From contig WFTY01000175.1 of the NCBI GenBank assembly GCA_015485245.1, positions 1 through 30,582 of the forward strand: a stretch of 30,582 bases of DNA. The letters are read 5' to 3'. The notes under the pieces are model-generated. The model ran no database searches. It saw nothing but the letters and a program-made list of their open reading frames with translations, and was not told the origin of the DNA. This document shows, one piece after another, positions 1,678 through 24,149 of this stretch (position 1 is the stretch's first letter; every line of letters starts with the position of its first letter). A program made the position numbers and the translations under genes. Source of the DNA: Anaerolineales bacterium. Lineage in GTDB: Bacteria; Chloroflexota; Anaerolineae; Anaerolineales; UBA11858.

Positions 1678-1682
1678 ATCAA

Positions 1683-1769
1683 TAGTCTCCTGGTCTCCTG
1701 GTCTCTTAGTCGTATATCCTCTAGTCGTTCAGACTATTTGACAACCAGACTAACTGACCATGTGACTAA
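1683..1769. repeat. Period-8 inverted repeat array (TRGTC units facing GACYA units) in the rplB-rpsS spacer
   Basis: TAGTC/TGGTC at 1683, 1691, 1699, 1707, 1722; GACTA/GACAA/GACCA at 1732, 1740, 1748, 1756, 1764. Confidence 0.85.
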
Positions 1770-1771
1770 TC

Positions 1772-4204: not shown

Positions 4205-4445
4205 CTCGATTGTTCTCCTTCATTTTTCGGTGTTGCCACTCATATTTGAGCGACGCACACACATGATGGGGACTGTCAGCCTGGGCTTGGCTGCATCATC
4301 CCGCCATAACGCAGTCAGTGGCCTCGCCGCGGCGAAGAAAATCTTTGGCCGCTCGTCCGATCACTCTTGCGCTATGCCGTACTCAGTTTTAATCGGGTTT
4401 TACAACCCGCTTCACCAGCCTGCCGTCGCCGGGGCAACGGCAGGC
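4205..4445 (-). ncRNA. Candidate structured 5' leader RNA of rplC (unassigned family)
   Basis: The 269-bp spacer has no credible ORF. Hand-found hairpins: 12-bp stem 4418-4445, CGGGTT-GTAA-AACCCG at 4394-4409, and further stems toward rplC. Confidence 0.45.
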
Positions 4446-4450
4446 CGACA

Positions 4451-4459
4451 ATTGTACCA
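4451..4459 (-). promoter_or_regulatory. Putative extended -10 promoter (TGGTACAAT) internal to the S10 operon, upstream of rplC
   Basis: TGnTAnAAT consensus match 14 nt after the rpsJ stop; no recognisable -35. Confidence 0.5.
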
Positions 4460-4473
4460 GTAAATATTCGACG

Positions 4474-6261: not shown

Positions 6262-6264
6262 GCG

Positions 6265-6334
6265 CAGTCGTTAGTCGACTGGTCGCTTAGCCCCCTCGCG
6301 TGGAACGACGAGGCTAACCGACTGGTTGGCTAAC
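6265..6334. repeat. Second period-8 inverted array (TAGTC/TGGTC/TAGCC facing GGCTA/GACTG/GGCTA) in the tRNA-Thr/tRNA-Tyr spacer
   Basis: Left units at 6272, 6280, 6288; right units at 6312, 6320, 6328. On the + strand 6270-6292 pairs with 6312-6334 with one mismatch. Confidence 0.8.
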
Positions 6335-6339
6335 AGAGG

Positions 6340-10109: not shown

Positions 10110-10185
10110 AAGATTGCTGATTGAGGATTGAAGATTGTGGATTGACGAGCCAATCGGCAATCTTCACGAACCAATCAGCATTTTT
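10110..10185. repeat. Period-7 inverted repeat array (GATTG x5 facing CAATC x3) in the tRNA-Gly/tRNA-Cys spacer
   Basis: GATTG at 10112, 10119, 10126, 10133, 10140; CAATC at 10151, 10158, 10172 (10165 degenerate). Confidence 0.88.
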
Positions 10186-10189
10186 ATTT

Positions 10190-22661: not shown

Positions 22662-24149
22662 TTAGCCCTCGATCTCAGCCATTAGCTCTGCAGCGGTGTT
22701 GTTAAGCTCCTCCAGATAAGTGGGGATGTCCGCGGCGTCGCCCTGGATGATGGCGTCAAAGGCGTCCTGCACGGCGCGGCGCACCGAACCCCAGGAAGCC
22801 TTGGTCGGCTCAGAGTGACCCACGGCGAGCAGGTCAAGGCCGGTCAGCCACTGCGGGTGTTCGGCAGCGTAGTCCTTCAGCAGGTCGTTGGCGCTCTGGC
22901 GCACCGGATAGTAGGCGCTGGCGTTGATCCAGGTGGCCTGAGCTTCCGGCGAAGTGAAGTACTTCAGGAACAGCCAGGCCGCCAGGTTCTGCTCTGGCGT
23001 GGTATTGACCACGGCCACGTACTGACCAAAGGCGTTCACCGCCTGGTTGCCATCGGGGCCAACGAAGGGGATGAAGCCCCACTCATCCGCCACGCCCGCC
23101 TCTTCAAAAGCTGCCAACTGGTAGGGGATACCAGCGGTGGAGCTCATGGTGAAGAGCGCCTTGCGGGTAGCAAACTCGGGGTTGGGGTAACTTTCCGTGG
23201 CAAAAGCGCAGCCGCTGTCCCAAAGATCCTTCAGGAAGGTAGCCACATCCTGAACCGCCGGCGAAGTGAAGTCATACGCCGAGCCGTCCTCGGTCAGGCC
23301 GTCATCGCCAAAGGCGAACACCCACGACATCACGTTGGAAGCGCCCGTGTAGAGCACCAAACCGCCGGTGCCGTCGTTGTCGGGATCATCATCGTTGGCG
23401 TTGGCCTCCGCCGCGGCACAGGCCTGCTCTTTGAACTCGGCCGCGTTGGCGGGGGGAGCGTCAAAGCCCAGTTCCTTAGCCCAGGTCTGGTTGTAGAAGA
23501 TCACGTTGGTCGACTGGCTAAGCGGCAAACCGATGCGCGCGCCATCCGCCACCACACCCGCGCCAAAGGCGCCTGCGTAGAAGTCGGCGATCTCATCCGC
23601 GCTCAAACCCACAGCGGGATCGTCCACATAGGGCTGCAGATCAGTGATCACGCCCACATCGTACCAGCCCGCCAACGCGTTGGTGTAACCAACAACCACG
23701 TTGGGGAGGTCGCCGGACTGAATGGCCGCGTTCATAGCATCTTCCACATCACCGTAACGACCCTGGTCAAGAGCCTCAACCGTGATGCCATACTCATTGG
23801 TGGCGTTGAACTGCTCCACCACGGCAGCCATGCCCTCGCTGGGCGCGCCAGAACCCCAAACGTGCCAGAAGGTAATGGTCGTACCGGCGAGATCCGAGAG
23901 CTTGACGCCCATAACCATCGGCTCTTCGGCAGGCGCCTCTTCTGCAGGGGCAGCCTCCTCAGCGGGGGCGGCTTCCTCGGCGGGAGCAGCCTCCTCAGCA
24001 GGAGCGGCTTCTTCGGCGGGGGCGGCTTCCTCGGCAGGAGCGGACTCCTCGGCGGGGGCGGCCTCTTCTGCCTTCGGCTGGCAAGCCGTCAAGGCTACGG
24101 TGATCAACATCACCAACAACAATAGGATGGAAAGGGTCTTGCGATTCAT
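22662..24149 (-). CDS. Carbohydrate-type ABC solute-binding lipoprotein (family 1, UgpB-like)
   Basis: Start MNRKTL (ATG 24149) with a GAGGAG SD, lipobox LTAC, ITFWH, FNATNEYGITVE, IFYNQTWAKELG, WLFLKYF motifs. Confidence 0.88.
   Translation of the reverse strand: MNRKTLSILLLLVMLITVALTACQPKAEEAAPAEESAPAEEAAPAEEAAPAEEAAPAEEAAPAEEAAPAEEAPAEEPMVMGVKLSDLAGTTITFWHVWGSGAPSEGMAAVVEQFNATNEYGITVEALDQGRYGDVEDAMNAAIQSGDLPNVVVGYTNALAGWYDVGVITDLQPYVDDPAVGLSADEIADFYAGAFGAGVVADGARIGLPLSQSTNVIFYNQTWAKELGFDAPPANAAEFKEQACAAAEANANDDDPDNDGTGGLVLYTGASNVMSWVFAFGDDGLTEDGSAYDFTSPAVQDVATFLKDLWDSGCAFATESYPNPEFATRKALFTMSSTAGIPYQLAAFEEAGVADEWGFIPFVGPDGNQAVNAFGQYVAVVNTTPEQNLAAWLFLKYFTSPEAQATWINASAYYPVRQSANDLLKDYAAEHPQWLTGLDLLAVGHSEPTKASWGSVRRAVQDAFDAIIQGDAADIPTYLEELNNTAAELMAEIEG
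23919..24071 (-). repeat. Coding tandem repeat (AEEAAP)x7 + AEEAP + AEEP linker, 18-bp unit
   Basis: Read directly from the DNA; units differ mostly at synonymous positions (one AEESAP). Confidence 0.93.

Follow-up and report, generated by a model that had tools for sequence, protein, structure and literature searches.

The window, i.e. the whole stretch of 30,582 nucleotides analysed here, belongs to a MAG of an Anaerolineales bacterium (2.6 Mb in 513 contigs, 81% complete, 60% GC), and the DNA runs holding it come from hydrothermal-vent and microbial-mat metagenomes. In protein sequence the genome is much more similar to named Chloroflexota contigs, most of them from Anaerolineales (median identity 50%, maximum 83%, 41 of 163 at 60% or more), than to other phyla (median 40%, 2 of 110 at 60% or more), in keeping with a member of Anaerolineae and probably of Anaerolineales. 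Its first 5 kb carry, on the minus strand, the S10-operon genes rpsC, rplV, rpsS, rplB and rplW. The gene rplB, which codes for the 50S protein L2, extends over 1772-2608 (ORF list; NCBIfam TIGR01171, E 6.9e-130) with its stop TAG at 1772-1774, and rpsS, which codes for the 30S protein S19, over 1405-1677 (NCBIfam TIGR01050, E 8.6e-43) with its start ATG at 1675-1677. The two are separated by an intercistronic spacer of 94 nt (1678-1771, minus strand), nearly all of which is a period-8 ladder hairpin, as indicated by its predicted fold, by shuffled controls and by its identity in the sister species (see below). The GC content of the spacer is 43%, against 60% for the genome.

Read on the mRNA, the 5' arm of the hairpin (1732-1768) consists of the units UAGUC / UGGUC / UAGUC / UUGUC / UAGUC joined by 3-nt linkers; it is followed, in the MFE structure, by an apical loop UGAAC (1727-1731) and by a 3' arm (1683-1726) of six units, namely GACUA, a degenerate GAUAU, GACUA, GACCA, GACCA and GACUA. 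The array is thus of the tandem head-to-tail type with a period of 8 and five plus six units. On the plus strand TRGTC is found at 1683, 1691, 1699, 1707 and 1722, and GACYA-like units at 1732, 1740 (GACAA, with one mismatch), 1748, 1756 and 1764. The preliminary description of this DNA had reported a 94-bp spacer made of 8-bp units at these same positions, and both the spacer coordinates and the pattern matches reproduce it exactly. In a scan of the window with four-unit period-8 patterns of the TRGTC and GACYA arms, allowing at most one mismatch, each pattern gave 3 matches, all inside the rplB-rpsS spacer, and neither was found in any of 100 dinucleotide shuffles of the window, which settles the shuffled-control check proposed earlier in favour of the array. 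The pattern is genuine and did not arise by chance.

The linkers of the 3' arm are purines (GAG/AGA/GGA/GGA), and on the mRNA this arm ends in ...GACCA-GGA-GACCA-GGA-GACUA-UUGAU-AUG, with the array in forward orientation and its last unit stopping 5 nt before the rpsS ATG. The AGGAG Shine-Dalgarno (SD) sequence of rpsS (1687-1691, minus strand; 9 nt before the ATG) is thus itself made by the repeat: its first base closes unit 5, the next three are the GGA linker, and the last is the G that opens unit 6. The earlier reading of the 3' arm sequence, and of the SD as a part of the repeat unit, was correct on this point. A search of the MAG for the 3' end of 16S rRNA recovered no rRNA, the 10 matches to GGATCACCTCC all lying in unrelated contexts.

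The Rfam scan of the window at the gathering threshold returned tRNAs only, and at a permissive threshold the region 1600-1850 gave just chance-level hairpin matches (E > 6) and no ribosomal leader. An intrinsic terminator or attenuator was considered and rejected: it requires a GC-rich stem and a U-tract, and the promoter/terminator scan of 1400-2100 detected no terminator-like site on the mRNA strand of the spacer, where the hairpin is followed by UAUUGAUAUG. The same scan detected no promoter-like site in 1400-2100, and an internal promoter suspected by eye (TTGTCA ... TATACG) was dropped on account of its spacing of 22 nt.

Folding of the mRNA strand of the spacer predicts a ladder in which helices of 4-6 bp alternate with internal loops of 2-3 nt, in line with the ladder of short helices and small internal loops proposed previously. 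Its energy is -36.4 kcal/mol, which corresponds to z = -3.46, and equal stability was reached by 0 of 200 shuffles. All 13 orthologous ladder spacers (see below) are likewise predicted to fold as rods, with z between -1.9 and -4.2. In 10 of 11 distinct orthologues the sense strand has a better folding energy than the antisense strand, by a mean of 3.1 kcal/mol, a comparison among kindred genomes and hence not a formal test; this bias of the sense strand points to RNA as the level at which the element acts. RNAalifold covariation is confined to a double change in one of 17 consensus pairs, from GC to AU in four sequences, and is weak because the GTC/GAC cores never vary. Pairing of the arms in the spacer mRNA is hence plausible, not proven, and the combination of invariant cores with little covariation means that the conservation may be due to a reader that recognises the sequence and not to pairing.

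In the MFE structure the rplB stop UAG is paired with the CUA of the last unit. The computed cost of opening this last unit of the ladder is only about 1.9 kcal/mol, and the ensemble prediction leaves the AGGAG SD unpaired in part (P about 0.5). A model in which a terminating ribosome unmasks the SD was rejected: the accessibility predicted for the SD is about 0.5-0.7 whether the stop region is blocked or left free, and blocking it plus 13 nt gave no consistent rise across the 13 orthologues. As the unmasking model finds no ensemble support, coupling between the two genes is retained here only in the weaker form of a juxtaposition. A structure shifted by one unit lies 2.9 kcal/mol above the MFE, and a register-slip switch, which has nothing beyond this energy gap in its favour, is retained only as part of the operator proposal discussed below.

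Comparison with related genomes was informative on both the age and the constancy of the ladder. In what follows G000 is the present genome, of genus g1, and G001 its sister species, while G012, G073 and G077 belong to the neighbouring genus g11. Orthologous ladders occupy the rplB-rpsS spacer in all three genomes of genus g1 (94, 94 and 93 nt) and in 11 of the 13 genomes of genus g11 (91-99 nt); the spacer of G019 holds a degenerate remnant of 75 nt, and those of G074, G076, G010 and G015 are free of the ladder and only 15-19 nt long. In a tree of L2 plus S19, built on 364 columns and not resolving the inner g11 nodes, the ladder-bearing genera form one clade (support 95/92), with the genomes that have 15-19 nt spacers nested inside it. 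The simplest history would be one gain followed by at least two losses, and the ladder appears to be dispensable, having apparently been lost in at least two lineages. The expectation that relatives would offer empty sites was thus borne out by the short spacers, but a variable number of units was not encountered, nor, in any orthologue, an ORF separating the arms. In three other metagenomes, contigs from related strains run through the spacer with no indel (these being contigs only, rare variants lie outside their reach), and rapid gain or loss of units is not seen at this locus either within the genus or across g11.

Between G000 and G001 the ladder spacer is identical (0/94 differences), although the flanking genes have diverged by 6.3-8.3% (21% at their third codon positions) and the 269-nt rpsJ-rplC spacer by 16.7%, a rate at which about 16 changes would have been expected. 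G000 and G002 differ by 9.6% in the ladder spacer and by 42% at third codon positions; within g11, G012 and G073 differ at 0/98 spacer positions and 8.7% of third codon positions, and G012 and G077 at 4/98 and 37%, respectively. Across the genera (G000 versus G012) the corresponding values are 22% and 58%. In G002 the nine changes affect linkers of the 5' arm, the apical part and the tail; they spare the 31 nt of the 3' arm closest to rpsS, which do not vary among the three g1 genomes. The last 27 nt of this arm are also identical between G000 and G012, G073 and G077, and the AGGAG SD with the last unit, AGGAGAC, is invariant in the 13 orthologous ladders, even where other linkers are CCA. In the closest pair conservation includes the loops and linkers, beyond the need of a purely structural spacer. 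These comparisons show, at the level of the sequence, that the ladder is under purifying selection; its stable unit number, the absence of indels and the few substitutions are unlike what is seen in a hypermutable simple repeat or in neutral junk.

A clue to the origin of the repeat is provided by relatives with short spacers, in genera g3, g5 and g6 and families f9 and f16, in which the RBS of rpsS is GGAGAC(A/G)N with a tail like ...GAATT-ATG. The last ladder unit and tail (AGGAGACUA...AUU-AUG) are homologous to this RBS of the ladder-free relatives, and the array units of the 3' arm have the form (A/G)GAGACYA. The most economical account, which we infer from these similarities, is that the repeat unit is a duplicated SD octamer: the ancestral ribosome-binding octamer GGAGAC(A/G)G of rpsS would have been tandemly duplicated in place to give the (A/G)GAGACYA array, the inverted TRGTC array would then have formed upstream of it, and the ladder would have originated in this way once, in the common ancestor of the three genera. 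In family f16 (G096) a period-8 GTC/GAC ladder ending in ...ACAGACUA-GGAGAC is present at the same site. It is either independent or very old, and fits nucleation on a GGAGAC seed.

The ladder is not an isolated oddity of its genome. A census of the host with TRF (period 7 or 8, at least 2.5 copies) recovered 142 such arrays at 124 loci; their units are of many sorts and they occupy spacers of every kind, so that the suggestion of a family targeting translation operons is not supported. Arrays of period 6 and 9 are mainly coding, while those of period 7/8 are enriched outside ORFs, and 21 of the latter have an inverted partner (at least 80% identity, within 130 nt) versus 0 in the reversed-sequence control. 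Examples of the period-7/8 arrays (C21:11994-12081, C21:15043-15132, C125:1412-1478, C79:6337-6422, C354:87-133 and C402:2299-2373) form long ladders or hairpins that are nearly perfect, and these commonly lie directly ahead of an SD and ATG. In the period-7/8 units of the host GAC/GTC exceeds expectation more than any other trinucleotide, being present in 51% of units versus 19% expected. Array loci lie in divergent and convergent spacers in a ratio of 17:7, versus a baseline of 236:238, a rough comparison that rests on a home-made gene caller.

Two further arrays noticed earlier in the window proved to be real, and the rplB-rpsS array is one of a family of periodic palindromes. One is a period-8 inverted array (TAGTC/TGGTC/TAGCC ... 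GGCTA/GACTG/GGCTA; 6262-6337, minus strand) that fills the spacer between tRNA-Thr(UGU) and tRNA-Tyr and has orthologues with altered units in G001, G002 and G021, a different hairpin being present in G017. The other is a period-7 inverted array of five GATTG units and their CAATC counterparts (10110-10189, plus strand), which fills the tRNA-Gly/tRNA-Cys spacer and is kept with small changes in G001, G002, G012 and G017; the corresponding spacer of G021 has a GATGG-type array instead.

Beyond the host, arrays of the AGACYAnn type are present in 16 of the family's 67 genomes (72 matches versus 10 for the reversed control). Of 13 that are not orthologous to the present ladder, 10 stop 2-34 nt ahead of an ORF start (ORFs of 80 aa or longer) in the sense orientation, against 3 of 13 on the other side; at these other loci the arrays often come without an SD. 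In a scan of species representatives, which shows enrichment and is no census, 35 of the 120 AGACYAnn stretches among the matches listed are from Chloroflexota, and some are from Bacteroidota. Loci outside Chloroflexota include four in Neolewinella persica (L107, L114, L171 and L180) and one in Lewinella sp. (L066), and a GACTAARA array of about 30 units was seen in Prevotellamassilia timonensis (L073). A TAGTC/GACTA period-8 ladder was also recovered inside a SAM-I riboswitch aptamer (RF00162, 81 bits; L038, G074:C218, 1406-1583), where the match spans 178 nt versus the 108 positions of the Rfam model, suggesting that such ladders are tolerated as helix extensions of functional RNAs. In other families of the order the rplB-rpsS spacer itself carries either unrelated heptamer ladders (GATAGCS, ACGTGAG/AACACGC or CAGATRG) or a period-8 GTC/GAC ladder (L208 in G284, L209 in G277, L214 in G261, L018 in G026 and L223 in G096), and in many further genomes plain hairpins of 47-136 nt. 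The presence of unrelated hairpins in the same junction implies that it is either a hotspot for such elements or a position at which a hairpin is of use. Inverted tandem arrays with units of 7-8 nt are widespread in Anaerolineae.

Repeats of this kind are known from other bacteria. The canonical STRR units of cyanobacteria are heptamers; as the rplB-rpsS unit is an octamer with a GTC/GAC core, identity with them is not claimed. To our knowledge STRR-type short tandem-repeat hairpins have been catalogued for decades with no function shown. One that lies in the hupS-hupL spacer of filamentous cyanobacteria is described as being of unknown function, with stability or translational coupling suggested (PMC2670836). 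The present ladder resembles the cyanobacterial hairpins in being formed by short tandem units between co-transcribed genes and in belonging to a type dispersed genome-wide in intergenic DNA; it differs in its host phylum, Chloroflexota, in its 8-nt rather than 7-nt unit with a GTC/GAC core, in that its unit carries the SD of the downstream gene and is apparently derived from it, and in its demonstrated purifying selection and cross-genus orthology.

A second parallel is offered by the TAACTGA heptamer repeats of marine Beggiatoaceae, some Cyanobacteria and Bacteroidetes, which have a patchy phylogenetic distribution and a suspected role in translation (MacGregor 2015, PMC4679880). These also form forward arrays a few nucleotides before start codons, and also within ribosomal protein operons, but they are nearly all direct, with one inverted set, and mostly lack an SD, in contrast to the present array with its inverted partner and the SD in its unit; the unit (A/G)GAGACYA moreover differs from TAACTGA in sequence and length. 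The intergenic heptamers GGGAATC of Xanthomonas and GGGGA(C/T)T of Nostoc have been studied as G-quadruplex formers (Rehm et al. 2015, PMC4692102). Xanthomonas has 70-75 convergent, i.e. inverted, pairs of them per genome, which are potential stem-loops, and the single or inverted-pair type is mostly kept between species (PMC4692102). Unlike these G-rich heptamers, the rplB-rpsS unit has 8 nt, cannot form a G4 and is situated within an operon beside a start codon. The view that the family is an unnamed one is therefore superseded by these close published analogues, the STRR hairpins, the TAACTGA repeats and the convergent heptamers of Xanthomonas: the ladder represents, in a form maintained by selection, an enigmatic class of repeats already described in cyanobacteria and other bacteria, and not a new kind of element.

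With respect to function, the reading that we favour, with a probability of about 0.5, is that the ladder is an STRR-like hairpin acting as a self-folding intercistronic spacer which sets the rplB stop beside the rpsS SD. On the S10-operon mRNA base-pairing between the two arrays would produce a rod, made of 4-6 bp helices and small internal loops, in which the 94 extra bases double back on themselves; at the foot of this rod the rplB stop would come to lie next to the last unit, i.e. the rpsS SD, which would be largely accessible. Initiation at rpsS could in this manner proceed as across a short spacer of 15-20 nt, by local coupling or re-initiation, and the stable local hairpin might also shield the rpsS RBS from other structures.

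Several other explanations account for parts of the same evidence. The rod might be a processing or stability element, serving as a site for a double-strand-specific RNase or as a barrier to exonucleases, by which the long r-protein transcript would be split or segments of it protected, tuning the amounts of upstream versus downstream cistrons. Purifying selection is compatible with this, as are the stable hairpins of unrelated sequence in the rplB-rpsS spacer of many other families of the order and the similar conserved ladders in tRNA-tRNA spacers, where processing is obligatory; stabilisation of the transcript has also been proposed for the hupS-hupL STRR hairpin (PMC2670836). Ribosomal proteins are, however, required in equal amounts, which leaves differential stability of no obvious use, and a rod with 3x3 internal loops every 5 bp makes a poor continuous duplex; we hold this explanation to be rather unlikely. 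The invariance of the GTC/GAC cores and of the whole 3' arm, the scarcity of covariation and the conservation even of unpaired linkers would be accommodated by an operator for an RNA-binding protein that sets rpsS translation through the spaced GAC/GUC cores or the GGA linkers, the candidate readers being a multimeric or repeat protein, an autogenous ribosomal protein, or an S1-, Csp- or CsrA-like regulator. The excess of GAC/GTC in period-7/8 units and the AGACYAnn arrays that lie just before start codons elsewhere, often with no SD, are in keeping with such an operator, and readers of this type have been proposed by MacGregor for the TAACTGA repeats (PMC4679880). Yet no candidate reader protein was identified, no ribosomal leader of Rfam was matched, and the many unrelated units used by the ladders of the host argue against one sequence-specific reader; we consider a protein operator of this sort improbable. 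A related and similarly improbable proposal is a translational operator built from duplicated SD octamers, in which the GGAG units would constitute a ribosome-loading or standby platform, or a lattice for a GAC-reading protein. The rod would then be register-slippable opposite the GUC array, and the protein would read GAC cores every 7-8 nt. Were this true, the STRR-like arrays of Anaerolineae, and perhaps those of cyanobacteria and Beggiatoa, would represent post-transcriptional control and not junk.

At the other extreme, the ladder might be a neutral by-product of slippage or strand-switching, of which the SD unit alone matters while the remainder is tolerated junk that folds on itself. The genome-wide occurrence of the class with many different units, the rise of unrelated ladders in the same spacer of other families, the tolerance of a ladder even within a riboswitch stem, and the clean loss in some lineages with no visible consequence speak for this explanation. 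Against it stand the spacer differences of 0/94 and 0/98 in pairs whose neutral-like sites have diverged by 9-21%, and of 4/98 against 37%, as well as a length of 91-99 nt kept across two genera with no indels among strains; a purely neutral origin accounts for the class, not for the conservation at rplB-rpsS, and we consider it improbable for the present locus. The preliminary description had suggested that the operon was colonised by a MITE- or REP-like element, or that the ladder is what a small gene cassette left behind. In favour of this are that the spacer is self-complementary and AT-richer than its genome, and that AGACTA-core arrays occur at several loci of some related genomes. REP/BIME and MITE palindromes are intergenic, hairpin-forming and sometimes intercistronic, and stabilise the upstream mRNA; REP and MITE consist of near-identical dispersed copies with defined ends. 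The rplB-rpsS ladder, unlike them, is single-copy in its genome, has internal tandem units and evolves in place. The proposed genome scan for further copies, carried out with blastn-short and with a TRGTC/GACYA cluster scan on the 81% complete genome, found this locus only; terminal repeats beyond the arrays and a target duplication are absent, as is an ORF between the arms in the orthologues. Moreover, the orthologous position and stable length over a long divergence, and a last unit and tail that are homologous to the RBS of ladder-free relatives speak against an insertion, which we regard as very improbable indeed.

The contribution of the rplB-rpsS locus is an octamer variant of the class whose unit is the SD, its orthology across genera and the strong purifying selection on it. 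This provides clean comparative evidence that one short tandem-repeat hairpin in an essential operon is under such selection, and turns a vague puzzle into a testable case, in which the rod may couple rpsS to rplB, stabilise the mRNA or bind a protein. For annotation it means that long, AT-richer, periodic spacers are to be expected in operons of Anaerolineae and should not be taken for assembly errors, mobile elements or missed genes.

Two other repeat or spacer regions of the window deserve mention. In the rpsJ-rplC spacer (4205-4473), the 45 differences to G001 are clustered at 4225-4261 and 4391-4472, with only 7 in the region from about 4262 to 4390; if a leader RNA is present there, its conserved core would be the middle third. 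At 23935-24068 there is a tandem repeat of GCCTCCTCGGCGGGGGCG-like units with a period of 18/36/54 and about 7 copies; since three divides the period evenly, it probably represents coding sequence of low complexity.
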